Origin: a virus
Taxonomy: Duplodnaviria > Caudoviricetes
Length of the DNA: 29,075 nucleotides
IMG/VR virus record: IMGVR_UViG_3300029179_000024
Coordinates: 1 to 29,075 of that record
Reading direction: 5' to 3' (one strand)
Position 1 is the stretch's first letter; each line of letters starts with the position of its first letter. The position numbers and the translations under genes were made by a program. Shown piece after piece: positions 240-22,021 of the stretch. The notes under the pieces were generated by a model. The model saw only the letters and a list, made by a program, of their open reading frames with translations, was not told the DNA's origin and ran no database searches.

Positions 240-710
240 TTATTTCCCTCTCAACTCTGGTTCTTTATATTGCTTGCCTAACGCTTTGTAGATTTGTTCT
301 TCAGTACGTGATGCGATCAATTCATTGTTCCTATTCCACAATCCATACTGATCAAGCTTCAATCCCATCACCTTGGCTCTTTTCCTATACGAGATATTGT
401 AGCCAGCAGGTCCAGTCAAGAAAAAGAGCATTGCGCCCCAACTCCCAAGTTCTGAATGATAGATATTGAACCGCATTCCTTTGTAGTCAACATCCATCTT
501 CTTATCGCCGCCATTTATTCTTTTTACTTTCACATTGTCTTCAAATCGTTTGGATATACCGTCTAATGACTCTGATACGATAATGTCTACGTCTCCAACT
601 GTCTCTTCTTTACGTCGTAAAGATCCAGCAATTGCGTACTCTTCTGTAATGAATTTTGCAATGAACTCAATCGCAATCTCTAACGCAACATTCTGCATCC
701 GTCTCATCAT
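240..710 (-). CDS. polX: Minimal family X DNA polymerase (palm + C-terminal domain only)
   Basis: AGSLRR...GDVDIIV nucleotidyltransferase motif; FLTGP, LKLDQYGL, TEEQIYKALG..Y.EPELR C-terminal PolX signature. Confidence 0.9.
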   Translation of the reverse strand: MMRRMQNVALEIAIEFIAKFITEEYAIAGSLRRKEETVGDVDIIVSESLDGISKRFEDNVKVKRINGGDKKMDVDYKGMRFNIYHSELGSWGAMLFFLTGPAGYNISYRKRAKVMGLKLDQYGLWNRNNELIASRTEEQIYKALGKQYKEPELRGK

Positions 711-715
711 GTCTC

Positions 716-1561
716 CTATTTATCTGGTCGAGGTCGATACACATGTCCTTCAATCAACTTACCCTTACTCGAACGCTTTCTGTATTCTACCTCAACAATT
801 GTATTGAGTAACGATTTACGATTCTTCCACATCTCTACTCGATCTCTATCATCCATTCCTGAAATGTTTGCTGTCTCAATTGACCATTTCCCTGCAGCAA
901 TTGGCATCCGTACTTCTAATGAACCAAGCATCCCAACATACTTGCCTTTACCTTCTTTGAATCCAACAATCAAACAATCCATCGTTTGCTTTGGTTTGAC
1001 CTTCCACCAATACTTACTTCTCTTAAATTCATACGGGCTGTTGAGAAACTTAATGATGGAACCATCACACCCAGATGAAAGATGAAACCGGTGTACTTCT
1101 TCAAAATCTTCGTATGATATTACGTGATTGACCTTTGTCGTTTGAATCATCGGGTGTCGATGTTTTGCAAATATCTCTTCTAACCTCTGACGTCGATCAC
1201 GCAATGGTTCATCTAAACGATCTTGATGGACCAAATCAAATATCTTATATCGTCCATGCTTTTCAAGATGCTCAGTCACATCGGCTTTTGATGATCGGAA
1301 CAGTGTCATTGTCTGTTCCCAATTCTGTCCAGCAATTTCTCCATCAATGATATACTTACGCAACGGCAGACTGTTCAGGAACGTTTGGATCTCCTTTACG
1401 TTGAACAGTGGCTTCCCCTGTTTCGTTGACCACATCCCGTTTCTTCTGATGAACCGGAACCCGTCGATCTTTTCCTCGACTTGTACTCTTAGCCACTTTA
1501 TCAGCTCCCACTCCTTTAGATCGCTTAGGTTTGCTCTTCTTGCTTTCATTACGTCGATCAT
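716..1561 (-). CDS. lig: ATP-dependent DNA ligase, minimal (adenylation + OB domains)
   Basis: Motif I EEKIDGFR, III IIDGEI, IIIa YKIFDLV, IV DGSIIK, V WWKVKP, OB-fold GKGKYVGMLGSL, terminal RPDK; RBS GAGGA. Confidence 0.92.
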   Translation of the reverse strand: MIDVMKARRANLSDLKEWELIKWLRVQVEEKIDGFRFIRRNGMWSTKQGKPLFNVKEIQTFLNSLPLRKYIIDGEIAGQNWEQTMTLFRSSKADVTEHLEKHGRYKIFDLVHQDRLDEPLRDRRQRLEEIFAKHRHPMIQTTKVNHVISYEDFEEVHRFHLSSGCDGSIIKFLNSPYEFKRSKYWWKVKPKQTMDCLIVGFKEGKGKYVGMLGSLEVRMPIAAGKWSIETANISGMDDRDRVEMWKNRKSLLNTIVEVEYRKRSSKGKLIEGHVYRPRPDK

Positions 1562-1844: not shown

Positions 1845-2022
1845 CAGTGTCCTCCTTACTAATTGGCTTATCATACTCAGAAAGGCGGTCAGTGACTTGT
1901 ACCGCTATTTCTATTGCTTGCCGGCTGTCTTTACTTAACAATGGCAAATGACATGTCAACAACTCACTTAAATGGATGAATGCTTCCGTTGCATGAAGAC
2001 GAATCTTCTCATCATTTGTCAT
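1834..2022 (-). CDS. Hypothetical protein (62 aa)
   Basis: AAGGAG upstream of MTNDEK; tiles between neighbours. Confidence 0.55.
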   Translation of the reverse strand: MTNDEKIRLHATEAFIHLSELLTCHLPLLSKDSRQAIEIAVQVTDRLSEYDKPISKEDTDAG

Positions 2023-2398
2023 GATGTCTTTTGTCTCCTTCTTCATCCTCATCTTCCTCATCTTCTTCATCTACTTCATCTTCATCCTCATCCTCATCCT
2101 CATCCTCATCTTCTGCATCTTTCGCAACTTGCAATGCTTCAGCATTTAAGTTGTCAAGCTCTTCATGGATTTGCGTATCAATCTTACTTAAATCCATATC
2201 AACTTTATCTTCAAACAGCTCTAGCATTTCAACACACATCGACACAAGACGCTTTGCAGCCTTAAATTCTTCAACACTTAATAATGTTGCTTCATCTTGC
2301 ACGTCAATCAATTCAGTTAATGCATTTTTGCAATCTGCTAAATCACTCACTGTATTTCTGAATCTGCAATGGCTCATGTTTCCCATAATATGCTCCAT
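2012..2398 (-). CDS. Hypothetical protein with long D/E tail
   Basis: Helical N-terminus (CRFRNTVSDLADC) and about 25-residue acidic run. Confidence 0.7.
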   Translation of the reverse strand: MEHIMGNMSHCRFRNTVSDLADCKNALTELIDVQDEATLLSVEEFKAAKRLVSMCVEMLELFEDKVDMDLSKIDTQIHEELDNLNAEALQVAKDAEDEDEDEDEDEDEVDEEDEEDEDEEGDKRHHDK

Positions 2399-2426
2399 TC
2401 ACTTGATTGATGTTTAGCAGCCTGTT

Positions 2427-2465
2427 AAAAAATACGGCAGTCAAGGGTTCTCCTCAACTGCCGTA
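2427..2465 (-). terminator. Rho-independent terminator
   Basis: Minus strand TACGGCAGTTGAGG-AGAAC-CCTTGACTGCCGTA (14-bp stem with 2 G.U) followed by TTTTTT. Confidence 0.8.
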
Positions 2466-2466
2466 C

Positions 2467-2584
2467 AAAAAAGAATAATCCGCGAGTAAAGTAATTCACC
2501 CGCTTCCTCTGACCAGGAAGATGATTTGTTTCGATAATGGTCAGTTATCGAGTATTTGTCACCTTGTAAGGATTACTCTTTTTC
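2467..2584 (-). ncRNA. Candidate structured RNA (multibranch, kissing loops), family unknown
   Basis: 15-bp closing stem, three internal hairpins, loops CUGACCA and GGUCAG complementary; G.U pairs form only on the minus strand. Confidence 0.5.
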
Positions 2585-3283
2585 TTTCTTCACATCGTCT
2601 GTTGTTTTGATACCGCTCAATTTGATGTACCCATGCTTTTCGTCATAGCGTAAGGAGCTTCGTTTGCCACCAGCATCAAGATAGCCAGCAACTGTCTTAT
2701 GCTTCTTATACAGTTCATATCGCTTATATGCTGACGATCCTTTTCTCTTTGGGTTCTCCTTCTCAATGAGCGTAATCTTTCCATCCACAACTCTCGGCCC
2801 ACGAGATTTTCGATCCTTCTTTTCTTTCTTTACTTTCTTTCCTTTCTTTTCTTTTGTGTCTTTCTTTTCTTTCTTCTCTTTCACGGGCTTCTTTGTCTTT
2901 TCGATTTTCTTTGCTGGTTTTGCTTTCTTTGGTTTCTTTTCTTCTTGCTCTTCAGCTTCATCCATTTCCGGCTCATCCATTTCGTCTTGTTCATCCATTT
3001 CTTTTTCTACCATATTTGCGCTCATATGTTTCCTTCCTTCTTTGATATCTTTGAATGTCCAAAGCTTTATTGGACCACCTAACCGATGCTGTTCTCGTTG
3101 AGCCGTCTTCTTCCTTCGCTTTACATCTTTTTTGATCGACTCACCAATGACCCGTTGATAGTGTTGCTTAATGCTCGTCTCATCAAAGAACTCACCAGCA
3201 GAATACATTGCATCTTCTCGTTCAAGACGCTTAATTTCTTCCGGTGACAATTGCTCAACTGGTTGAGCTTTCTCAACACTCAT
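2573..3283 (-). CDS. Lysine-rich (histone H1-like) putative DNA-binding protein; possible internal start at 3025
   Basis: Acidic block, K-rich low-complexity block, compact C-terminal domain ENPKRKGSSAYKRYELY...YDEKHGYIKL. Confidence 0.7.
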   Translation of the reverse strand: MSVEKAQPVEQLSPEEIKRLEREDAMYSAGEFFDETSIKQHYQRVIGESIKKDVKRRKKTAQREQHRLGGPIKLWTFKDIKEGRKHMSANMVEKEMDEQDEMDEPEMDEAEEQEEKKPKKAKPAKKIEKTKKPVKEKKEKKDTKEKKGKKVKKEKKDRKSRGPRVVDGKITLIEKENPKRKGSSAYKRYELYKKHKTVAGYLDAGGKRSSLRYDEKHGYIKLSGIKTTDDVKKEKE

Positions 3284-5900: not shown

Positions 5901-6566
5901 TTACCGACGACTGCGCTTCTTTTTCTTCTTCTCCCTCTTCTCCTTTCGTGCCTTCTTTCGCTTCTTCCCACTGTCTTCATCGTCGTCCTCTCCTTCATCC
6001 TCCTCTTCTTCTTTCTCTTCGTCGTCCTCATCCTCATCAGTCTCTTCATCTTCGTCTTCACTCTCACCTTCACTCTCGTCTTCATCCTCACTCTCAGTCT
6101 CTTCTTCATCCGCATCCTCATCGGCTTCTTTCTCTACAACCTCTTGATCGCCAACTGAGAGGATGGACATATTCTGATACCCACCAGAATTCGTGCTAAA
6201 CTTCACGGTGAAATCATCTTCGTTCTCATCCACGAAGCTCTGCAACGCATCCGGCAAGTCTTCCATATCATCTGGCAATTCCAACCCGATGACTTCTGCA
6301 AACCCCTTGAAGAATGCGATGTTGTTCTCATTCTCCAAGCCGTGGAACACCAACTTATCCTTCCCCTTCATGTTCTTCGGCTTCTTAATCTTAAACGCGC
6401 TAACAACTTGCAGCCGCCCGCTCTTAGCATGCTTGACTTCCATCGACTGTAGTGAGACGACGTACTCACCATCTGGCAATTGCGAGCCACCACCACCCTT
6501 CTTTGGCTCAGTCTTTGACCACGTCTTCGACAATTTCTTCAAATCTTTCGATACATCAGTCGCCAT
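5901..6566 (-). CDS. Single-stranded DNA-binding protein-like (DUF669-type OB fold) with acidic tail
   Basis: LPDGEYVVSL...KSGRLQV...FKI pattern; follows the Sak4-like gene; long D/E tail then basic tip. Confidence 0.7.
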   Translation of the reverse strand: MATDVSKDLKKLSKTWSKTEPKKGGGGSQLPDGEYVVSLQSMEVKHAKSGRLQVVSAFKIKKPKNMKGKDKLVFHGLENENNIAFFKGFAEVIGLELPDDMEDLPDALQSFVDENEDDFTVKFSTNSGGYQNMSILSVGDQEVVEKEADEDADEEETESEDEDESEGESEDEDEETDEDEDDEEKEEEEDEGEDDDEDSGKKRKKARKEKREKKKKKRSRR

Positions 6567-10325: not shown

Positions 10326-10838
10326 TCATACTCTCCCATAGAGTTGCCAATGCCCAATGCCAATGGCATCACACACGTTATGATCAAGATCTTTCCATTC
10401 ATCTTTCGTATAGTGTTTTCCTTTACCCATATACACTGATTCAATCCGATTCTTCATCACATCCTTCGACAACTGCCCCTTCCATTGCCGCGGCAATGCA
10501 AACACGAACTTCTCTACATCATTGCGCATCCCATAGAACAATCCGCAAATGAATGACAATTTTGTAATGGAGCCTGATTCTCGCGCCATATAGCCAGCGA
10601 CTGACCAATGATCTGGCAACTCACAGGCAATAACATTGACGCCGCACTCATCTCGAACCGTATTGACTTTGGTATAGATTGAAAACGCTTTATCGTAAAA
10701 TTCTCCATCTCTCGATGCAACTTTGTCTGGACGCACCAACATTGCATCCAAGAGTTCTTTCGTCTTGGCATCGAACAATGCAATCCCACAAAAATTAATC
10801 GACGGGTCGATCGCTAACAATGTCTTTGTTTTCTTCAC
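10326..10838 (-). CDS. RuvC-like Holliday junction resolvase
   Basis: LLAIDPS...GIA, ACELP, QWKG, HNVCDAIGIG; GTG start after GGAGGAGG. Confidence 0.8.
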   Translation of the reverse strand: MKKTKTLLAIDPSINFCGIALFDAKTKELLDAMLVRPDKVASRDGEFYDKAFSIYTKVNTVRDECGVNVIACELPDHWSVAGYMARESGSITKLSFICGLFYGMRNDVEKFVFALPRQWKGQLSKDVMKNRIESVYMGKGKHYTKDEWKDLDHNVCDAIGIGHWQLYGRV

Positions 10839-11298
10839 GCTTCGCCTCCTCCTCTTTCTTCCGTTGCAATTCAAAGAACCGTTTCAAAAAGACTTCATGC
10901 CGTAACTTCAAAATCTCTATCACTAACAAATCATCCGGTGCGACCCACCCTTCTGGCTTCACCACATCAATGGTTGTTCCCCGCTTTGATTCCGCCACTG
11001 TCTTTGCGCGTTCTTTTCGCATGTTCGCATCTTGCACATGCTGCCATCCCACATTCCATGGGAGGTTCATCATGTACGCAGTACCTAACGCGACATACAC
11101 AAGATCGATCAACGCATCGAATGCTTTATAGACGTTATCTGTCATATATGCGTCAACAAACTCTTCAACCTCTTCTTTTAAAAACTCAACCCGAAACTGC
11201 ATCATATCTTTCGGCAGAAAACTTGACATCTCCGTCTGTGGAATGTCAAATTTCTCATGAAAGTGACACACATCAGCCCACATATCACAGTTTTCCAT
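10795..11298 (-). CDS. MazG-like all-alpha NTP pyrophosphohydrolase (dUTPase/dCTPase-like)
   Basis: FHEKF, LKEEVEEF, DALIDLVYVALG, V..ANM.K, KPEGWVAP; RBS GAGGTGA. Confidence 0.85.
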   Translation of the reverse strand: MENCDMWADVCHFHEKFDIPQTEMSSFLPKDMMQFRVEFLKEEVEEFVDAYMTDNVYKAFDALIDLVYVALGTAYMMNLPWNVGWQHVQDANMRKERAKTVAESKRGTTIDVVKPEGWVAPDDLLVIEILKLRHEVFLKRFFELQRKKEEEAKREENKDIVSDRPVD

Positions 11299-11329
11299 TG
11301 GGATCACCTCTACTATGAATTGTGAATAA

Positions 11330-13138
11330 TTACACTGCGACTTGCAACCGGCGAGGGTATTCGTGCTTAACCTTCTTCCACTCTTCGACTGATCCCCAAT
11401 TTTTCTTGGAGACTTTTGGTTCAACACGTAGCGGGATTTTTAATGAGACATGATCCTCCATTGCACCACAAATTTCCTTCACCACTCGATGCGCTGGCTC
11501 CTTCTCCGATACTTCAAACAACAACTCATCATGTACTTGTGCGAGTAAGTTCACATCCATGCCTTTCTGTGAGATCATCCGACTGACTCGCAGCATCGCA
11601 TACTTCATCACGTACGCTTCCGTCCCTTGAATGAGCACGTTCGGTCCTTTGTACGCCAGCTCTTGTGGAACACGATACTCTCGATTGAACTCCATCAACG
11701 GTGACTCGAACTTTAACTCAAGGATCCCAGTCCGATGGAGCTGTGAGATACATTCTCGCGTAAACTCTTTCACTGGCACGATGCTATAGTATTTCTCAAG
11801 GATCTGACTCGCTTCCAATCGTGACATATCTGCTTTCGCCTTACTATTTTGGAGTGACCGCAAGAGCTTGTTGAGCCCCATTCCAAACACGAGACCAAAC
11901 TGAATGTTCTTCGTATCTTTCCGCAGCTCCTTCTCAACGACCCCGAACAGCATCATGCAGGCGGCATCATGCGGATCCCATCCATCCCGACATTTTTGAA
12001 TCAATGTCGTCGCATTGGCAAAATGAAAGAAGATCATCATTTGTAATGCTTTATAATCGACCGCGAGCATGAAGTACCCGGGCCGAGGACGGAATGCCAT
12101 GCGGGCCAGCTTCGGTGCTTTCGCTGTGCGAGATTCGTCAGGTCGTGGGATCGTCTGGATCAACTCCGCTGACATGCGGCCAGTTCTCGCTCCCGAGCCG
12201 AATGTAAAGAAATGTGCATACGGGAATTCTTTTGTCGTATACCGTCGCCACAACGGATCGAAATATGTGCCTTTCTGTTTTGTCAAGAACCGATACAGCA
12301 ACTGCAACGCCACAATCTTGTGGGAATCGTATTGTGCGAGTACTTTGGCTTCAGTAATGGGATGGCCCCGTTCATTCTCTGGAAGTGGGACGCCCATCTT
12401 CTTCATCACATATGCGACCTGCTTCGGTGACGATGGATTGAACTCCGGCAGCTTGATCCCATTCTGCTTCAAGACTGCTTGGATGTCAGCATAGCAGGTC
12501 TCAGCTTCTTTCCCATAGCGTGCCGCTTGCTGTCGTGCAAACTTCCGATCCACCATCATCCCAATTGCTTGCATCTTTAGGATGACACGAGCGACCTTCT
12601 TCTCTGTCTCATAAATCCGTTGAAAGCGTTTGATCGGCTCACGAAACAAGAACCACAATTTCTGCGTGAACACCGCATCTTCTGTCGCATACGGTTTCAT
12701 GACAAACCGAGGGATTTGTGAGTAATCAAACTCAATCCCCAACTTCTTCGCTTTCTTCTTGTACTTGGCTTTGTATTTCGAGAGCTTCTTCGCTTCTTTG
12801 ATATCCGCTTTGAGATACTTCTTTGCCATTGGCTTCAAACCTTTGCGTGAGGCAAAGTTCTCATCCAACAACGTACCCGCAATGAGCGGATCTTCAAATG
12901 GTCCACGACAACGAATGTTCAGATGTTTGACGACGTGTGCGTCAACGGTGTATGGGAATGCAATCTTCGTGATGGTTGGATCTTCTAGCAGTTGGCGAAG
13001 TTTCGCGACCTCCTTTGGTTTATGACAATTGTACAGTTCCGTCTGAAGCTGCCAATCACATGTGGTTGCGATGAATGGTTCTTTGCGATTGTTGAACTCT
13101 GTATCGAAGGCTACGCAACGATCAGGATCGTTTGCCAT
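11330..13138 (-). CDS. polA: Family A DNA polymerase with 3'-5' exonuclease domain
   Basis: ExoI AFDTE, ExoIII YATEDA, FNPSSPKQV, TGRMS, motif A DYKALQ, motif B RKDTKNIQFGLVFG, IQGT, motif C VHDEL. Confidence 0.93.
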   Translation of the reverse strand: MANDPDRCVAFDTEFNNRKEPFIATTCDWQLQTELYNCHKPKEVAKLRQLLEDPTITKIAFPYTVDAHVVKHLNIRCRGPFEDPLIAGTLLDENFASRKGLKPMAKKYLKADIKEAKKLSKYKAKYKKKAKKLGIEFDYSQIPRFVMKPYATEDAVFTQKLWFLFREPIKRFQRIYETEKKVARVILKMQAIGMMVDRKFARQQAARYGKEAETCYADIQAVLKQNGIKLPEFNPSSPKQVAYVMKKMGVPLPENERGHPITEAKVLAQYDSHKIVALQLLYRFLTKQKGTYFDPLWRRYTTKEFPYAHFFTFGSGARTGRMSAELIQTIPRPDESRTAKAPKLARMAFRPRPGYFMLAVDYKALQMMIFFHFANATTLIQKCRDGWDPHDAACMMLFGVVEKELRKDTKNIQFGLVFGMGLNKLLRSLQNSKAKADMSRLEASQILEKYYSIVPVKEFTRECISQLHRTGILELKFESPLMEFNREYRVPQELAYKGPNVLIQGTEAYVMKYAMLRVSRMISQKGMDVNLLAQVHDELLFEVSEKEPAHRVVKEICGAMEDHVSLKIPLRVEPKVSKKNWGSVEEWKKVKHEYPRRLQVAV

Positions 13139-13148
13139 CTCGTCTTAA

Positions 13149-13301
13149 TTATCCTCCATGATCAATGATCCCTTGTCGATCCATCTCATTATAGCAGCGC
13201 CGACAAACTGCTATCTTATTCAACAGCTTCATTTTCACCCACTGCAAGATGCTCACTTTTGTTTCGAACATTCCGCATGCAATGCACGTGACTTTAAGCA
13301 T
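13149..13301 (-). CDS. Small Zn-ribbon protein (50 aa)
   Basis: Read manually: MLKVTCIACGMF...AVCRRCYNEM; fills the gap between the deaminase and PolA. Confidence 0.6.
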   Translation of the reverse strand: MLKVTCIACGMFETKVSILQWVKMKLLNKIAVCRRCYNEMDRQGIIDHGG

Positions 13302-13779
13302 AGGTCACTCTCCGTAACTCCATCGCGTCTTCTCGAACAAAAAAGAAATCTTCATTCAATTGTTGTAAATACTGCTCCCGCCAATCATCTTTGTAGTCAT
13401 GCAAATAATAGATCTTCCGTACTCCAATCTGCAATAAGACCTTCAAACAATCGAGGCATGGTTGATACGTCGAATAGCACTCGATCCATCCCGTTTCTTT
13501 TGATCCACGCACTTGACATTTGAGGACCGCATTGATTTCCGCATGGATGGTGCGAATGCACGTCGTGCCCGTTGTCGTTGACCCTTTCCGATCCGTCTTC
13601 ACGAGCACATGATCGCTCTCATTGCAATGATAATCATTATGCACACTGCCCACATAGCCATGCCCAACAATCTGGCGTTGATGCACAAGGATGCACCCAA
13701 CTTTTGCCCGACACGTCGAGGCTTCCGCAATTTGCTCCGCGATCTTCATCCAAAATTGCCGTGTGATCTTTAGGTTCAT
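13294..13779 (-). CDS. dCMP deaminase (Zn-dependent, ComEB/DCTD type)
   Basis: STC..KVGCILV, GYVG, HAEINAV, QPCLDC, GVRKIYY. Confidence 0.88.
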   Translation of the reverse strand: MNLKITRQFWMKIAEQIAEASTCRAKVGCILVHQRQIVGHGYVGSVHNDYHCNESDHVLVKTDRKGSTTTGTTCIRTIHAEINAVLKCQVRGSKETGWIECYSTYQPCLDCLKVLLQIGVRKIYYLHDYKDDWREQYLQQLNEDFFFVREDAMELRRVTYA

Positions 13780-13780
13780 A

Positions 13781-13975
13781 TTATTCGATGTCTTTCCGCG
13801 TAAAAAAGAGATACGCTTTTCCAACATCATATTCTACACAGGCACCATGTAATGTGAGATCTGGCGCCATACCAAGTTTCGCACCGAACGTATACTTATA
13901 GTAACCTGCAAGGCCAACTGATTCTTTCGAGAGACAGACATATCGTCGACTAAAGTTTGTGCCAGTAATCATCAA
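13781..13975 (-). CDS. Hypothetical protein (64 aa)
   Basis: GAGGAGG RBS; tiles with neighbours. Confidence 0.6.
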   Translation of the reverse strand: MMITGTNFSRRYVCLSKESVGLAGYYKYTFGAKLGMAPDLTLHGACVEYDVGKAYLFFTRKDIE

Positions 13976-14267: not shown

Positions 14268-14436
14268 GCGATACCTCTTTACTTTTATCTGACATCGTTG
14301 CGCCAATGACCACCCACCAGATACCTGTTGCAAACAATCCCAACCCAGGATGCATCCACCACATGCCCACTGTCATACACACGAATCCAAACAATGCCGC
14401 GATTTCTCCCCAGTTGATATCCATCTTCTTCATCAT
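14191..14436 (-). CDS. Small membrane protein (two hydrophobic segments)
   Basis: IAALFGFVCMTVGMWW and LGLFATGIWWVVIGA; ATGA coupling to the upstream gene. Confidence 0.6.
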   Translation of the reverse strand: MMKKMDINWGEIAALFGFVCMTVGMWWMHPGLGLFATGIWWVVIGATMSDKSKEVSHDQERQGVRSQYGSAGVPGPSEAAK

Positions 14437-15428
14437 CTCCCAACCTCCTGGACAATGTTATTCACGGTATCGACCACATGCGACCATGATGGCGTCACTC
14501 TCAGAATCTGTTTTTGCTGATGTGCTGCAAGTTCTTGCAACGCCTTCGCTGACATCTCCTCTATGTCCTCAATGTTCACATGCATGAGTGTCGCCAACTC
14601 TCCCCATTCTTTCTGCTCAGCGTACATTACATTCTGCGCAATCATACCATGACAATAGCGTGCCCGCCACCAACCGCTCCCAGACGCTGAGTATTTTGGC
14701 AGCAACATCCCATGTGATTCAGCATATCGCTGCACGAGCTCATGTTCAGGAATGAAATTCTTTTTCGTATACCATTGAATTGGCCATGTTGCGCCCAACC
14801 GACTATGCCATTTCTCATAATTATCCAATGCACCATACATCCACTGAAACTTCTTTCGTTTAGGAATTGCGATCGGTAGCTTCTTCCATTGTTTCAAATA
14901 AAACGCTGTCGGATTGAACTCATTGAGTGATGTGAATGGTGTTCCTTTAATGATAATATCGCGATCACCCCACGGGAAGAATGGCCCTAACAGGTTGGAC
15001 GTATGACGGAACATTTCATTACGACAGCGTTCGAGTTGCCGACGATCTTTCATCACTCGTTCTTTCGATAATCGACTGCCAGTATTATTGTTCAATACAA
15101 ACTCACGGAAGAGGTTTTCATCCATCAACATACGAATGGTCTTATTTGCTTTCCAATCGTTCACTAAGTAGAGCACATGCTCCCCTTGTGATGCCAACAA
15201 CGTCTCATAGAGGTAATGACAGCTGTACTCACTGATCGTGCCCAACCCAAGAATGAGCAAATCAAACTGCTTGAAGATCTCTTGCTCATTATATTCCAAT
15301 GCTCTCCACTCGACATCATGCTTCGCCGCCTTTAACGCATGATAGAGCGCATTGATCGACGTATTATAGTCTCGTCGTCGAGAGCCATTGGCTTGCATGC
15401 GTGTCATCCCCGTCAACAATACTCTCAT
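14433..15428 (-). CDS. GT-B fold DNA glycosyltransferase, T4 beta-glucosyltransferase-like
   Basis: Pattern match to T4 BGT recalled from memory: FDLLILG~YDRLIVV, VLYLVNDWK~IYYLFTDIR (catalytic Asp), IPEHELVQRY~IPMNMVSEKN, WRARY~TLRVW. Confidence 0.65.
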   Translation of the reverse strand: MRVLLTGMTRMQANGSRRRDYNTSINALYHALKAAKHDVEWRALEYNEQEIFKQFDLLILGLGTISEYSCHYLYETLLASQGEHVLYLVNDWKANKTIRMLMDENLFREFVLNNNTGSRLSKERVMKDRRQLERCRNEMFRHTSNLLGPFFPWGDRDIIIKGTPFTSLNEFNPTAFYLKQWKKLPIAIPKRKKFQWMYGALDNYEKWHSRLGATWPIQWYTKKNFIPEHELVQRYAESHGMLLPKYSASGSGWWRARYCHGMIAQNVMYAEQKEWGELATLMHVNIEDIEEMSAKALQELAAHQQKQILRVTPSWSHVVDTVNNIVQEVGR

Positions 15429-16021
15429 TTCGTTCCCTTTCTCATCATATGCACACTTAACCGCGACTTATCCAGTTGCGACTCCATCGAGAAATCGGTA
15501 ATGCTTCCAGGTTTGAGTCGCCGAATCTTCGCCTCATCCGTTAACCATTTCACCAGCATTTTGAGATTGCCAACCATGCGTGTCAACATATCTCGCTTGC
15601 GATAGACAGCCACCATATTCAGCGTATGTTTGACGCGTTTGAATCTGACCAACACAAGGCATGGATTATGCTCCCCAAAATTGTCGCCATCAAACGATGG
15701 GTCCCACATACAGATGAGCTTGTTCGGTTGCACACGATGCTCATCAAACTGATGGTACCCAAAATACTTCACCGCTCGATGCATATACCCAAAATCTTTC
15801 CGCTTTCCATTGTTGCCGTATCGGCGAAGCTTCTCCTCTGTATACGAACGAATGGTATCCTTATGATGCCATGGATACTGGACTTCATGCCACTCCATCA
15901 ACGATTTCGTCAAATGGAATGGCTGAAACTCTAGCACGACACTCTCGCCAGGTATCACGAGCTCAAGTGCTTGCATGAATTTTCCGGGACTCTGGAGACA
16001 ACTCGCTGGTAACACCCGCAT
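15425..16021 (-). CDS. Truncated, divergent thymidylate-synthase-fold protein
   Basis: GY..R, MWDP, NPCLVLVRF, LNMVAVYRKRD, GNL, KPGSITDFS; lacks the H-x-Y motif. Confidence 0.7.
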   Translation of the reverse strand: MRVLPASCLQSPGKFMQALELVIPGESVVLEFQPFHLTKSLMEWHEVQYPWHHKDTIRSYTEEKLRRYGNNGKRKDFGYMHRAVKYFGYHQFDEHRVQPNKLICMWDPSFDGDNFGEHNPCLVLVRFKRVKHTLNMVAVYRKRDMLTRMVGNLKMLVKWLTDEAKIRRLKPGSITDFSMESQLDKSRLSVHMMRKGTK

Positions 16022-16024
16022 ACG

Positions 16025-16906
16025 TTACCTCATAATCTTGTTGCGATGCGTCACGAACAACTCTTCCATTGCCATAACCTTATGCATCGAAATCGTATCG
16101 AGACATAGCACGTTCCCCAATTCTACCGTCGACAATCCCCCTCTAAACATCTGCTTCGCTCGCATCATCGCATCTCGTAACGTTAATGTCTTGAACTCGA
16201 TGAAGTGCTCACTCTGTTCTTCCTCTGTCTTGACTAATCCCCAGTCGTGCACTTCCTCAACATCACTCTCATAGATGTGCAATGAGCTGATGTTATACAC
16301 GATCTCAATGGCGTCAATCTCCATCCCCGCATCGACCAGCTGGTTCTTCATTAAGATCGCCAGTGCTTGCCAATGCAATGCATCAATCGAGTATCCCGTC
16401 ACAAAATCCGATGATCGCGACGTCACAATCAAAAACAACTTCCGGTTCCGATACATGAACTGCAACAACGTATTACACGGCAAATGTGTGCGGGTTGTCG
16501 TTTTGCCATCATCTTCATTATATATTGACACGCACGCCTGGCGCGTATGGATATCCCGTAGGATCCTGTCGATGGCGACAGCCAGCTGGTGTTGCATCCG
16601 ATAGCCATAAGCCCCATTGATCTTTCCATCAGCATCAACATAATGTTTCATCGCGGCATTATAGCTCACAATACTCTCTGCATCATTCCGCCCCGACAAC
16701 ATGTAGCATAACTCTGCCAGCACAAACTTGATTGGGACCACTCGATGATGCGGACACGAAAAGACTGACACTGAATTGAATTCAATGTCGATACATGACT
16801 GATCAGCAATCATCTCATACGCCACTGGCATCTCACGACATTCAATGTCAACTGGTGATGCCAACACGATCCGCGTCATATGCGGATACAACTCTGCAAA
16901 TCTCAT
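16025..16906 (-). CDS. dCMP hydroxymethylase-like thymidylate-synthase-fold enzyme
   Basis: AEL..MLSG, GAYGYR, TRQA, LPCNTLLQF, RSSDFVTGYSID (Asp at the dUMP/dCMP specificity position, as in T4 gp42), SLHIYE. Confidence 0.85.
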   Translation of the reverse strand: MRFAELYPHMTRIVLASPVDIECREMPVAYEMIADQSCIDIEFNSVSVFSCPHHRVVPIKFVLAELCYMLSGRNDAESIVSYNAAMKHYVDADGKINGAYGYRMQHQLAVAIDRILRDIHTRQACVSIYNEDDGKTTTRTHLPCNTLLQFMYRNRKLFLIVTSRSSDFVTGYSIDALHWQALAILMKNQLVDAGMEIDAIEIVYNISSLHIYESDVEEVHDWGLVKTEEEQSEHFIEFKTLTLRDAMMRAKQMFRGGLSTVELGNVLCLDTISMHKVMAMEELFVTHRNKIMR

Positions 16907-16917
16907 GCATCCCTCCC

Positions 16918-18135
16918 TTAGTCTGAAATGACCATCTTCAACTCCCGAAAGAACTCATCTGAAATTCCCATCCGCAAATAATACGCTGGATGATACACTG
17001 TCTTGTAGTGAAACTTCATTCGCTTCAATTGTTCAGCTGCGACCTTTCCTAAGGCAATGATCTGTGCCTTCGGATTCTGCTTCACAATGCGTCCAAGTTC
17101 TCCATCCAATGATTGCACACATTCAAGATTCGTAATCGTTTGTTTACTCACATACAGACTCAGCTTATTCTCCACTGGACAGCATTTTACTGCATTCGTC
17201 ATATAGTATTTCACCGGATGAATGCACAACCGATCGAATGTCACTTGTAAGAGGTTGCCGCTACGATCATCATAAAAGGGGATACCGAGCTTTCCACACC
17301 CGTCTTGGCCCGGTGCTTCACCCACGAAAATGAAGTCAATATTATTGACGGCGCCGCATGGACCAGTCGGACGATGATGGTTTTGCGCGAACTTTGCGAT
17401 CGATGCATGGTCAACACCGAGCTTGCAGTCGCCTGCATTGTAGTCTTGGCAAGTATATGTGCCATCGATGAATCCTCTCTTCGGCTCCCATAACGTTTGA
17501 TCCGCATTAAAGAAAGTATGACTATACGAATCGGTAATGGTATGTTGATACGGCACCATCTTGACCCATGCTTTCACTCGACTTGTGATATACTTATTGC
17601 GTGCATCAAACGTTGGGTAATTCGCACAGTTGACATACAGTGTGCGTTTGACACCGAGTGATGCCACCACATCGACAAACCGTGTCGCGATCTTCTTGGC
17701 TTCCGTCCGGCGTTGATATTTCTTTTCTTCATCGCCTTTCTTTTCTATATTCAAACGTTGATACACTTCGCCATCAGTATAGAGTACGATGATACATACT
17801 CGATGCTTCACTGATTTGATCTTCTCAAGTAATGCAGTATGATATTTCTCATGATCGTACTGCCCTGTCCGATACATTGGACCATAGACGTCTTCACCAA
17901 TGATCGACCGATCCCAAATCTCTAACCCATCCTCAACCTCTATCGCTCGAATCACATTCTTGAGATAGTTGAGCTGATACGTCAACGCAGCTTTCCCTTC
18001 ACCGAGCGGTGGTCCACAATGCACAACACGAGGCTGTGTCGCATTCTGCATATACGTTAATTCTTTTTGCAGATGTTTTGCAAGGTAGGACTTCCCGAGA
18101 TTGTCTGGACCTTCGATAATGATCACTTGCTTCAC
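16918..18135 (-). CDS. Fusion: P-loop dNMP kinase (N-terminal) + family-4-like uracil-DNA glycosylase (C-terminal)
   Basis: IIIEGPDNLGKS and WDRS...E.VYG; then FVGEAPG, GIPF...SG.LL, TNAVKC.P, IIALGKVA, YHPAY; GTG start after AAGGAGG. Confidence 0.85.
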   Translation of the reverse strand: MKQVIIIEGPDNLGKSYLAKHLQKELTYMQNATQPRVVHCGPPLGEGKAALTYQLNYLKNVIRAIEVEDGLEIWDRSIIGEDVYGPMYRTGQYDHEKYHTALLEKIKSVKHRVCIIVLYTDGEVYQRLNIEKKGDEEKKYQRRTEAKKIATRFVDVVASLGVKRTLYVNCANYPTFDARNKYITSRVKAWVKMVPYQHTITDSYSHTFFNADQTLWEPKRGFIDGTYTCQDYNAGDCKLGVDHASIAKFAQNHHRPTGPCGAVNNIDFIFVGEAPGQDGCGKLGIPFYDDRSGNLLQVTFDRLCIHPVKYYMTNAVKCCPVENKLSLYVSKQTITNLECVQSLDGELGRIVKQNPKAQIIALGKVAAEQLKRMKFHYKTVYHPAYYLRMGISDEFFRELKMVISD

Positions 18136-18247: not shown

Positions 18248-19048
18248 TTATTTTTTCTTGATCACTGTTGCGAGTGTCTTTTGCAACTGATCTTCCGTCA
18301 CTGCATATTGCGACAAGAGCTCTCTCGTCAGATACCACCAGGCCTTCAAGAGATCTTCTGTCTCCACATTCTTATGCTCATGACGTGCAATGTACTTCAC
18401 CGCATTGCCCAGGTTAAAATTCAGCTGCCAGGCCTCAATCGCGTCAATGACTTCAACCGCACCGGCATTATAATGTGAGGGATGATGTATCGTGTCGAAT
18501 GTCCCAAATGCCTCTGACGCGACCTTCTTCTTTTTCTCATCCAATGGTGGCTGTTGCTCACCAAGTGTTGTTTGATCTGATGGATAGCCGACCAATGCAC
18601 CTTTGCCATTACATGCTTCGCACTCGGCTATCTTATGTCGTACACCATCTCCATACCGGCCTTTTCCTTTACATTTTGGACATTGTATGTACTGCAACAT
18701 TTCCGTCATTCCTGGTGATGTCATGTCTGATGCTCCTTTTGTTGTGATATTCATGCCCCCTCGACCCTCGCATATTGGACAACACGCGCCATTCACAATG
18801 TGATTCCCGAGATATCCTTTTCCATGACAGTTCGTACATTGTACATACTGTATCGCATCTGTACGCCCAGATTGGACCGTCATTGTCACATCTCCTATTT
18901 CAATACTTGTTTGAATACTCCCACTTCCTCTGCACCTTGCACATTCCGACGCTTCCATATACTCACCGCTCCCATGCCATCCTTTTCCCTTACATTCAGG
19001 ACATTGTTCAAACCATGGGATCCCAGTATTATGCATGCCAGTCACCAT
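18248..19048 (-). CDS. DnaJ-type Zn-finger repeats fused to a DUF3310-like (T7 gp1.7-related) domain
   Basis: Six CxxCxGxG motifs; C-terminal HPSHY...EVID.I...FNLGNAVKYIAR..HK...EDLLKAWWYL. Confidence 0.8.
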   Translation of the reverse strand: MVTGMHNTGIPWFEQCPECKGKGWHGSGEYMEASECARCRGSGSIQTSIEIGDVTMTVQSGRTDAIQYVQCTNCHGKGYLGNHIVNGACCPICEGRGGMNITTKGASDMTSPGMTEMLQYIQCPKCKGKGRYGDGVRHKIAECEACNGKGALVGYPSDQTTLGEQQPPLDEKKKKVASEAFGTFDTIHHPSHYNAGAVEVIDAIEAWQLNFNLGNAVKYIARHEHKNVETEDLLKAWWYLTRELLSQYAVTEDQLQKTLATVIKKK

Positions 19049-20264: not shown

Positions 20265-20921
20265 TTACCGCATCTTTTTGAGATTTTCTGCCTGTGTCGC
20301 TCCAGGTTCGATATCTTCATACAAGACGGGAATCTTCTGCTGAAACTCTTCAAGCAACGGGATCGCGACTTGTCGCATTTGTGGATGCGCCTCTCGCGTC
20401 GTTCGCATGAGAAAGAAGTGTCGCCAATTGCGCAAGTTGTATGTGACAATAATTCTTGATGCTAACGCATTTGGAAACACTGCTCGTGCAATTTGCGGTG
20501 TTGTCCCAATGTCGATGAGCTGTTTATAGGCATCTTCTGCATATGAAATGCTATTCATCAATATCACTGTTTGGTCAGCCGTCAACTCTAGAGGAATAAC
20601 AAACGTCGGTGGCATTTTCTTTTCATAATTCACAAACCGTGTGGATTCTTGGGTATACGCACCAAGACGATGTCGCACCCATTCATGTGTAATTCCTCTA
20701 TCAACGATCGCATCAACTGACACTGACGCATGTTCAGTAATCGACCAATCGCCTTTTCCTACGACAACTGCGCGGATGAACCGCTCCCATGATTGTTCCG
20801 TCTGGGCATCTTCAGAGCGATGTGAGATGCGCCCACACCATTCAACATGCCGTAAGAGCACAATCCCATCAGCCACTGTCGGCACATTCAACATCTTTGC
20901 AGATGGATGAATAATTTCCAT
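20265..20921 (-). CDS. thyX: Flavin-dependent thymidylate synthase
   Basis: SITEH, R...HE.VRHR-x7-S (RHRLGAYTQESTR), ARAVFP, NLRNWRHF..MR, AHPQMR. Confidence 0.93.
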   Translation of the reverse strand: MEIIHPSAKMLNVPTVADGIVLLRHVEWCGRISHRSEDAQTEQSWERFIRAVVVGKGDWSITEHASVSVDAIVDRGITHEWVRHRLGAYTQESTRFVNYEKKMPPTFVIPLELTADQTVILMNSISYAEDAYKQLIDIGTTPQIARAVFPNALASRIIVTYNLRNWRHFFLMRTTREAHPQMRQVAIPLLEEFQQKIPVLYEDIEPGATQAENLKKMR

Positions 20922-21303: not shown

Positions 21304-21578
21304 TAGTGATTCCCCAATTTGACATCCACCACTCGTTCTCCCGCAGCCTCAATGACTCGTCTCCCATGCTCATCAAGTACGTGCTGACAACAATCAAGCA
21401 ATGCATGCCCAAGTTGTGTCGCTGTTGTTAATGACAATGTGTATTCTCTTGACACGAGTGCTCGTTCACCATCAACAATCGGTCGCATGGTCATAATCAC
21501 TGTTGCGGGCGCTTTGAACCCAAGATCGATCTGTAACCGTTGTTCATGGACTTTTTCTTGTTCCACAGTGCCCTCCAT
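21303..21578 (-). CDS. Hypothetical protein (91 aa)
   Basis: GGGAG RBS; TAATG coupling. Confidence 0.6.
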   Translation of the reverse strand: MEGTVEQEKVHEQRLQIDLGFKAPATVIMTMRPIVDGERALVSREYTLSLTTATQLGHALLDCCQHVLDEHGRRVIEAAGERVVDVKLGNH

Positions 21579-22021
21579 TAACTCCCATGCTGCGTGATAC
21601 GATCAGTCAACTCTTCTAGCTGATCATAGCCATAGACGCCGTCAAAGAGGCCATACATCGCATCCCATTCACCATTGACGAGCATCCCAAACACATACAC
21701 ATGTTTCTTTTTCCCTTTGGCATAGCCGGCTTCAATGTGTGCTGAATTCCCACTTGGGAGCACTAGGATGACGATATCAGCCTTTTCGAGTTGCTCTTTA
21801 TTAAGCGCACAAATCCGTTGGATAAGGTCATTGCGTAATGCCGACTGCGCTGTTAAATATTTCGCTTTCTCATCATTCCAAATGATGGTGCTTAACTGAC
21901 TCGCTTCTTCCACGATATCACAAAAGACATATGCGGTATGCCCACAGCTGCGTAACCGCTGGCCAACCATCCGGCAAATGAGTTTTTGTTTTCGTGAGCC
22001 TGCTACATAGACATTCATCAT
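21578..22021 (-). CDS. Nucleoside 2-deoxyribosyltransferase-like / nucleotide N-hydrolase
   Basis: VYVAGS, ADIVILVLPSGNSAHIEAGYAKG (catalytic Glu motif). Confidence 0.78.
   Translation of the reverse strand: MMNVYVAGSRKQKLICRMVGQRLRSCGHTAYVFCDIVEEASQLSTIIWNDEKAKYLTAQSALRNDLIQRICALNKEQLEKADIVILVLPSGNSAHIEAGYAKGKKKHVYVFGMLVNGEWDAMYGLFDGVYGYDQLEELTDRITQHGS

Follow-up and report, generated by a model that had tools for sequence, protein, structure and literature searches.

Family 4 uracil-DNA glycosylases (UDGs) use four cysteines, in the pattern CxxC...C...C, as ligands of a 4Fe-4S cluster. According to the accessible text of PMC9796141, Glu47 of UDGa blocks thymine, T. thermophilus UDGb has Gly64, and DR0022 of Deinococcus radiodurans, which pairs family-4 catalytic residues with an Ala50 gate, cuts uracil (U) and 5-hydroxymethyluracil (hmU) in mismatches and does not cut 5-hydroxyuracil; in its A50E mutant the hmU activity (G/hmU) is lost and the uracil activity goes up. 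The substrates of the family-5 enzyme UDGb of P. aerophilum likewise include hmU opposite G, as stated in the part of the review PMC8438529 that was available.

Kinases resembling SPbeta YorR (3kb2/2axp) occur in cytosine-hypermodifying phages as RB69 gp45, DLP3 gp78 and RL38J1 gp214, where they adjoin a dCMP-type thymidylate-synthase (TS) homologue and a glycosyltransferase (PMC13326640 Table 1); the accessible text of that paper gives these three as kinases alone, with no UDG fusion mentioned there. For RB69 and DLP3, it reports tests of a dNMP kinase homologous to T4 gp1 and not of the cluster's YorR-like gene, and the accessible text of PMC8056088 calls the RB69 YorR-like gene merely a putative thymidylate kinase. 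UDGs joined to a replication-linked enzyme are described, in the available part of PMC13697223, as the UDG–PolA fusions of SPO1-, N4- and SP15-like phages.

Here we analyse a 405-residue protein encoded in a 29,075-nucleotide stretch of viral DNA (Duplodnaviria; Caudoviricetes), hereafter the window, in which a kinase domain is joined to a UDG domain (Table 1). The T4 glucosyl-hydroxymethylcytosine (hmC) pathway (gp42, gp1, gp56, Cd, beta-gt) and the window have in common a dCMP-type TS homologue, a kinase, a pyrophosphohydrolase, a dCMP deaminase and a transferase resembling beta-glucosyltransferase (BGT). The window differs from T4 in belonging to a PolA phage, in having a YorR-type rather than a gp1-type kinase, and in encoding ThyX, a second TS-fold protein and a built-in glycosylase; we know of no built-in glycosylase of this sort in T4. 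With the UDG–PolA phages the window shares a UDG on a replication-linked enzyme, PolX and ligase in the same genome and, probably, modified pyrimidines, whereas in those phages the partner is a polymerase, the genomes are T-modified and the UDGs cut dU and pass over modified T (PMC13697223, accessible part).

Table 1. Features of the kinase–UDG locus in the window.
Feature	Position	Strand	Details
Kinase–UDG fusion ORF (P0001), 405 aa	16918..18135	(-)	GTG start after AGGAGG
P-loop nucleoside-monophosphate kinase domain, residues 1-194, YorR/thymidylate-kinase fold	17554..18135	(-)	EGPDNLGKS at 18088-18114; DRS motif
Conserved linker, residues 195-222, TFFN motif	17470..17553	(-)	Weak similarity to N-terminus of Thermococcales standalone UDGs
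UDG-superfamily domain, residues 223-405	16918..17469	(-)	E273, F287, D290, N314, N323, H382, R388; candidate Fe-S ligands C229, C237, C318, C339
Motif 1, GEAPGQDGCG	17293..17322	(-)	Gate Gly279 codon at 17299-17301
TS1, dCMP-type TS homologue	16025..16906	(-)	Cys kept, D169 kept, N177D, His at L143 place; likely dCMP hydroxymethylase
TS2, second divergent TS-fold protein	15425..16021	(-)	TIGR03283, E 5.5e-9; PC, RKRD, Asn at 177
GT-B glycosyltransferase (GT) resembling T4 BGT	14433..15428	(-)	Top Foldseek match 1qkj, E 3.6e-6, TM 0.55-0.60
dCMP deaminase	13294..13830	(-)	PF00383
Family A DNA polymerase (PolA)	11330..13138	(-)	No UDG domain detected in it
MazG-like nucleotide pyrophosphohydrolase, candidate dCTPase	10795..11427	(-)	PF01503, PHROG 671
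ThyX, ordinary dTMP supply	20265..20921	(-)	PF02511
PolX-type polymerase core (240-710) and ATP-dependent DNA ligase (716-1561)	240..1561	(-)	PF14791, PF01068; downstream base-excision-repair parts

An intact kinase–UDG gene and its relatives

The ORF begins with a GTG at 18135, preceded by AGGAGG, and continues for 405 codons without an internal stop. Among the 65 proteins retrieved (query included), 57 cover at least 95% of the query, and the fusion is therefore an intact gene and no assembly artefact. Contigs of runs X1 and X2, both of which may be the window's own source, span the ORF and show neither a stop nor a frameshift between the kinase and UDG domains, the matching records having no letter change or gap inside. 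An earlier note on this DNA had described a single ORF fusing a dNMP kinase to a UDG, and the uninterrupted 405 codons together with 56 near-full-length relatives bear this out; the motifs it quoted (EGPDNLGKS, DRS, GEAPGQDG, TNAVKCCP and HPAY) are all present in the translation. The predicted structure of the fusion has a pLDDT of 94.8 and a pTM of 0.93.

The N-terminal domain has the P-loop (GxDxxGK[ST]), the DRS motif and the fold that the fusion kinase shares with the YorR-like enzymes, and PHROG 761 (thymidylate kinase) matches residues 1-175 (E 7.8e-10). As to whether the substrate is dTMP or hm-dCMP, the gene context makes hm-dCMP likely. Directly upstream lies a DUF3310 protein with CxxC repeats (18248-19048, (-)), for which the PHROGs label is 'nucleotide kinase', making it a second kinase candidate.

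More distant fusions also occur. The UDG profile also picks up divergent kinase–UDG proteins of ~300-330 aa that lack the Cys ligands (hhalign probability 99.5%), and two of them come from cultured phages in which the gene is annotated 'thymidylate kinase' and the C-terminal UDG-like domain is unannotated. In DSL-LC01 (WJZ48531; L112:89-1084), the gene is followed by an L143D/N177D TS, a dCMP deaminase and PolA. In Bacillus phage G (gp315; L118:7992-8987), the eighth residue of the motif is Gly, and the neighbours of the gene are a dCMP deaminase, an L143D/N177D TS and a pair of alpha-glucosyltransferases. At another locus, L036, the kinase is unfused and a different UDG lies three genes further on: L036:8990-11895 holds in a row the unfused kinase, a TS with D169S, a methyltransferase-like gene and the other UDG (GQSLHGYN), an array that possibly serves another cytosine modification. 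Many loci with the kinase alone adjoin N177D TS genes, and in these the fetched DNA contains no UDG.

The Gly gate, the YorR-like kinase and the hmC cluster are each of an already-known kind. What appears undescribed is the combination of kinase and UDG, and with it the catalytically complete Fe-S-type subfamily. No paper on a kinase–UDG fusion was found in open-access full text, and the word 'glycosylase' is absent from the accessible text of a glycosyltransferase survey (bioRxiv 10.1101/2023.12.21.572611).

The UDG domain in relation to families 4 and 5

The C-terminal domain has the UDG alpha/beta fold, and Pfam UDG matches residues 265-398 of the fusion (E 1.4e-14). Gly279, the eighth residue of motif 1, aligns without gaps to E47 of T. 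thermophilus UDGa and to G64 of UDGb; a check on whether the alignment would instead put a Glu at the canonical gate position thus finds Gly there. A first alignment of 60 rows has Gly at this position in 56 and Glu in none. Residues were also counted in a larger collection of 97 long fused proteins, some of them near-duplicates, from which seven short forms and a single fragment had been excluded. Of these 97, 84 have Gly at the gate, even down to ~30% identity, and 2 have Glu. In all, 13 of the 97 lack the gate Gly; several of these have rewritten loops, one lineage (L060) is also without the His, and they keep the TS. By alignment, E273, N314 and H382 are the equivalents of the family-4 catalytic residues Glu41, Asn80 and His155, and they are conserved in 95, 96 and 95 of the 97 proteins, respectively; DNA-facing K364 and R388 are likewise retained, R388, the wedge residue, in 77. 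The four candidate Fe-S ligands are invariant in a 54-row alignment (A1), with the first pair spaced Cx7C, not CxxC.

Compared with family 4 enzymes (T. thermophilus UDGa 1ui0, T. maritima 1l9g, S. tokodaii 4zbx), in which the gate is Glu47, the fusion has two loops that are each one residue longer, its Cx7C pair and an attached kinase, and a ~15-residue family-4 segment ahead of the His motif is absent from it. Consistent with this, the family-4 model NCBIfam TIGR00758 gives the domain 39.1 bits, below the curated cut-off of 125.3. The loop after Gly279 is one of the longer ones and is followed by PFxxDxSG in the family-5 register; across the longer motif-1 loop, the gate Gly and PFxxDxSG, the alignment to family 5 UDGb 2d3y is ungapped, and Asp290, at the place of T. 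thermophilus UDGb Asp75, is Asp in 87 of the 97 fused proteins. Family 5 enzymes (T. thermophilus 2d3y; P. aerophilum UDGb), however, have Leu58 and Ala where the fusion has Glu273 and Asn314 (motif 3), and, unlike them, the fusion keeps the family-4 His motif. In a midpoint-rooted FastTree phylogeny of 174 rows and 169 columns, which contains no solved family-5 sequence, the Cys-containing fused domains form their own 87-row clade (support 0.99) and do not group with GLAPG-type (family 5) sequences. As judged from sequence, the domain is not a family 4 enzyme with one change; it fails defining features of both families. The earlier note had regarded the Gly as an unusual replacement within family 4, a view that gives way here to that of a family-5-like subclass: Gly is present in 52 of 84 standalone UDGs retrieved, 50 of these with the family-5 Asp (31 have neither residue and 3 have one of the two). 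The gate Gly may simply be inherited, because some Gly-gated standalone UDGs are encoded on archaeal chromosomes, where the scan of neighbouring genes showed none for modification. We also observed a UDG with a GxxGCG loop fused to a methyltransferase domain (P0064).

Standalone Thermococcales UDGs nest within the 87-row clade: P0109, whose cluster includes T. gammatolerans P0208, and L044/45/48. The T. gammatolerans protein (ACS33045/WP_048811052) has the same GEAPGxxGCG and FYxDxSG motifs as the fusion UDG (hhalign probability 99.8%) but is standalone and chromosomal and has neither the kinase nor the Cys339 ligand. Its residues E118, N159 and H216 (P0208) match in number those of T. barophilus UDG247, of which ACS33045 is probably the orthologue. 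UDG247 is reported to be a bifunctional uracil glycosylase/AP lyase, as cited in the accessible text of PMC10731606. Residues 11-59 of P0208 align with window residues 163-218 (17482-17649) with an hhalign score of 32.5 and a probability of 63%, the best of 60 column shuffles scoring 19. The faint resemblance of this N-terminal extension to the kinase end and linker hints that the Thermococcales standalone UDGs derive from a truncated viral fusion.

The proposal that the pocket may accept 5hmU had been based on the Gly. The Gly itself is not new, given the DR0022 and UDGb precedents for a small gate; those same precedents (Ala50/A50E and Gly64; PMC9796141, available text) and the likely 5hmC neighbourhood lend support to the proposal. 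DR0022 and the fusion UDG both combine family-4 catalytic Glu, Asn and His with a small gate residue. The comparison is one of residues, not of clade: motif 1 of DR0022 begins with Leu, and the enzyme is a standalone bacterial one, active only near pH 5.5 (PMC9796141, same text). By analogy with DR0022, the pocket of the fusion is likely open to 5hmU. Glycosylated hmU is probably outside its reach, so repair would be limited to unglycosylated bases.

Neighbouring genes and related loci

Reading along the minus strand, the fusion gene is followed by TS1, TS2, the GT, the dCMP deaminase, PolA and the MazG-like enzyme, and both ThyX and the DUF3310 gene precede it. The best PDB sequence match of TS1 is T4 dCMP hydroxymethylase (E 6e-6), and its motifs HLPCN and RSSDFVTGYSID hold the catalytic Cys and N177D. 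Under the residue rules for TS homologues (N177D, D169N and the L143 place) in the accessible text of PMC13326640, the 5-hydroxy-dCMP synthase pathway of RB69 and DLP3 was rejected, as D169N is absent, the window and all 18 TS genes of the fusion loci retaining Asp169. The acidic residue at the L143 place that marks T4-type hydroxymethylases is also absent from TS1, which has His there, as does its clade (11 rows), with Asp in the more distant orthologues L026, L029, L038 and L060. By these residues TS1 appears dCMP-specific and hydroxymethylation is likely, the product being not certain because of the His.

TS2 is strongly conserved (22 rows) in its catalytic Cys, Arg166, Asp169, Asn177 and extra basic residues (RKRD; E. 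coli numbering), and it has neither the monophosphate Arg pair nor the 3'-OH His/Tyr pair. It always adjoins the GT gene, and could be a pseudoenzyme, a partner of TS1 or an enzyme acting on the base within DNA. The six loci with TS2 all keep the GxxGCG UDG loop, and TS2 is absent from seven loci, of 3 lineages, whose loops are rewritten and whose context is complete. The GT itself is, on its modelled fold, likely a DNA hmC glycosyltransferase. In phage C48C1 a TET/JBP gene is immediately followed by a homologue, and homologues flank UDP-galactopyranose mutase in C48C1, DSL-LC01 and Aeromonas phage AS-gz. Taken as a whole, the cluster likely swaps cytosine for sugar-coated hydroxymethylcytosine in the phage DNA.

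We fetched 25 fusion loci, several of which are near-duplicates. A TS gene is contained in 18 of them, in every case with Asp177 and Asp169, and the other seven end within 1.5 kb of the gene. Near the fusions of L002, L024, L026, L029, L038 and L060 are radical SAM/SPASM pairs, transketolase halves, TPP enzymes, an aminotransferase, a sugar epimerase, a C-methyltransferase and C5-DNA-methylase-like genes, which likely represent unusual sugar tailoring of the modified base. The gene order around the fusion recurs in one locus, L097, whose contig of 58 kb had been placed in a bin with a Candidatus Gracilibacteria MAG; this may be a mis-binned phage or a hint at the host, which it does not establish. 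GC content is 0.24-0.37 in most kinase-only loci (L007-L017, L074-L084) and 0.38-0.45 in most fusion loci, with 0.26 in L060 (degenerate UDG); the exceptions are L029 (0.31) among the fusions and L018 (0.64), L099 (0.42) and Sixama (0.51) among the kinase-only loci. This contrast, which is confounded by host and kinship, fits unrepaired C-to-T drift. Elsewhere in the window, a nucleoside-deoxyribosyltransferase-fold gene (21578-22021, (-)), which 8 related loci from the near clade also carry, encodes a possible nucleotide hydrolase of the DNPH1/MilB type (its only PDB matches are to MilB, E 0.8). Low-complexity tails, long, acidic and Lys-rich, occur in several proteins, at 2012-3283 and 5901-6566 (-).

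Predicted activities and competing explanations

The intact fusion, both folds, the conserved catalytic residues and the gene order are observations, from which we infer every substrate. We put at about even the chance that this is one two-domain protein in which the kinase phosphorylates 5-hydroxymethyl-dCMP and the Gly-gated glycosylase excises U and 5hmU from the phage's own DNA, both being predicted activities. TS1 would convert dCMP to hm-dCMP and the kinase would convert hm-dCMP to hm-dCDP; host NDP kinase and phage PolA would then bring it into DNA, with the MazG-like enzyme lowering dCTP, and the BGT-like enzyme would attach the sugar. Deamination of hmC in DNA, giving mutagenic hmU:G, or leakage of hm-dUMP/hm-dUTP through the neighbouring dCMP deaminase could be the source of hmU. 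Host family-1 UNG is not known to remove hmU. The UDG domain would take it out, and PolX and ligase would help to complete the repair; base-excision repair is suggested because both are encoded in the same genome, as in the T-modified UDG–PolA phages (PMC13697223, accessible part). No hand-over of substrate between the domains would be needed, and the fusion would guarantee co-expression.

In favour of a hm-dCMP kinase joined to a U/5hmU glycosylase are the dCMP type of all 18 fusion-locus TS genes, the T4 BGT-like fold of the GT, the retention of the catalytic residues, the repeated pairing with modification genes in two distant cultured phages (phage G gp315 and DSL-LC01) and the pairing of an unfused kinase with a UDG in L036. 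Against it, the 13 fused relatives without the Gly still keep TS, the DUF3310 protein offers a second kinase candidate, and the kinase tested for RB69 and DLP3 was the gp1 homologue (PMC13326640, accessible text). The glycosylase is not required, moreover, because so many kinase-only loci have N177D TS genes beside them and no UDG in the fetched stretch.

The UDG could instead be an ordinary repair enzyme for uracil, perhaps also hypoxanthine, from the family-5-like subclass, its Gly inherited and its fusion a matter of operon compaction, with the dCMP deaminase raising dUTP. The co-occurrence of Gly and Asp290 in 50 of the 84 standalone UDGs, the nesting of the T. gammatolerans enzyme in the same clade and the commonness of phage UDGs for uracil repair (PMC13697223, available part) agree with this. 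For uracil alone, however, a narrow Glu-gated family-4 enzyme would be enough; the Gly persists in 84 of 97 fused proteins across wide divergence, the TS gene, wherever a fusion locus contains one, is of the dCMP type, and a small gate residue permits hmU excision in DR0022 (PMC9796141, accessible text). We regard this explanation as possible but rather unlikely. We think it improbable that the UDG fold is an editing domain that hydrolyses free hm-dUMP, a product of the adjacent dCMP deaminase, before it can be committed to the dNTP pool by the kinase. Such a role would accommodate the missing ~15-residue segment before the His motif, the confident two-domain model (pTM 0.93) and the persistence of the fusion in distant phages that keep PF, Asn and HP but have rewritten Cys ligands and a rewritten motif 1; yet DNA-facing K364 and R388 are kept, ThyX needs dUMP, and the deoxyribosyltransferase-fold protein of this clade could do the job (its MilB match being just E 0.8). 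To our knowledge, moreover, no UDG-fold enzyme acts on a mononucleotide. A broader version, in which the domain proofreads for a hm-dCMP kinase by destroying hm-dUMP as nucleotide, perhaps also in DNA, in which the complete form is ancestral to the stripped-down fusions, and in which a truncated copy became the second UDG of Thermococcales, strikes us as quite unlikely; if true, the UDG superfamily would gain its first enzyme for a mononucleotide, and phages would have a counterpart to the DNPH1/SMUG1 safeguard.

We give little credence to the idea that the modified base is other than plain hmC, with TS1 (His143) and/or TS2 (Asn177) making another C5-substituted pyrimidine and the glycosylase tuned to its deamination product or helping to make the final base. 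The His at the 143 place throughout the window's clade (11 rows) is in line with it, as is the association of TS2 with the GxxGCG loop (6 of 6 loci, against seven full-context rewritten-loop loci from three lineages without TS2). But the lineages are few, L002, L026 and L040 keep GCG with no TS2 in the fetched stretch, the TS1 orthologues L026, L029, L038 and L060 carry the hydroxymethylase Asp, D169N is absent, and a BGT-like enzyme needs a hydroxyl acceptor. T4-type phages break down host DNA, and by that general logic, together with the fusion itself, the glycosylase might strip normal bases off unmodified host DNA and the kinase recycle the products, as the earlier note had offered as its alternative. 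A glycosylase, however, frees bases and not the dNMPs that the kinase uses, attack on unmodified host cytosine is unlikely because Asn314, which selects the uracil-type edge, is kept in 96 of 97, and excision of thymine or cytosine by Gly/Ala-gated relatives is not reported in the accessible text of PMC9796141 or PMC8438529; we hold such a function to be very improbable.

In hmC phages, the cytosine swap creates the hmU:G lesion, for which repair by the usual bacterial uracil glycosylase is not known, and how C-to-T drift is avoided has been little studied. The fusion protein is a candidate phage-encoded hmU repair enzyme. A U/hmU glycosylase with family-4 catalytic residues that works at neutral pH could be a useful reagent for 5hmU mapping. 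The 'thymidylate kinase' genes of the cultured phages G and DSL-LC01 hide a UDG-like domain, which makes genetics possible there.
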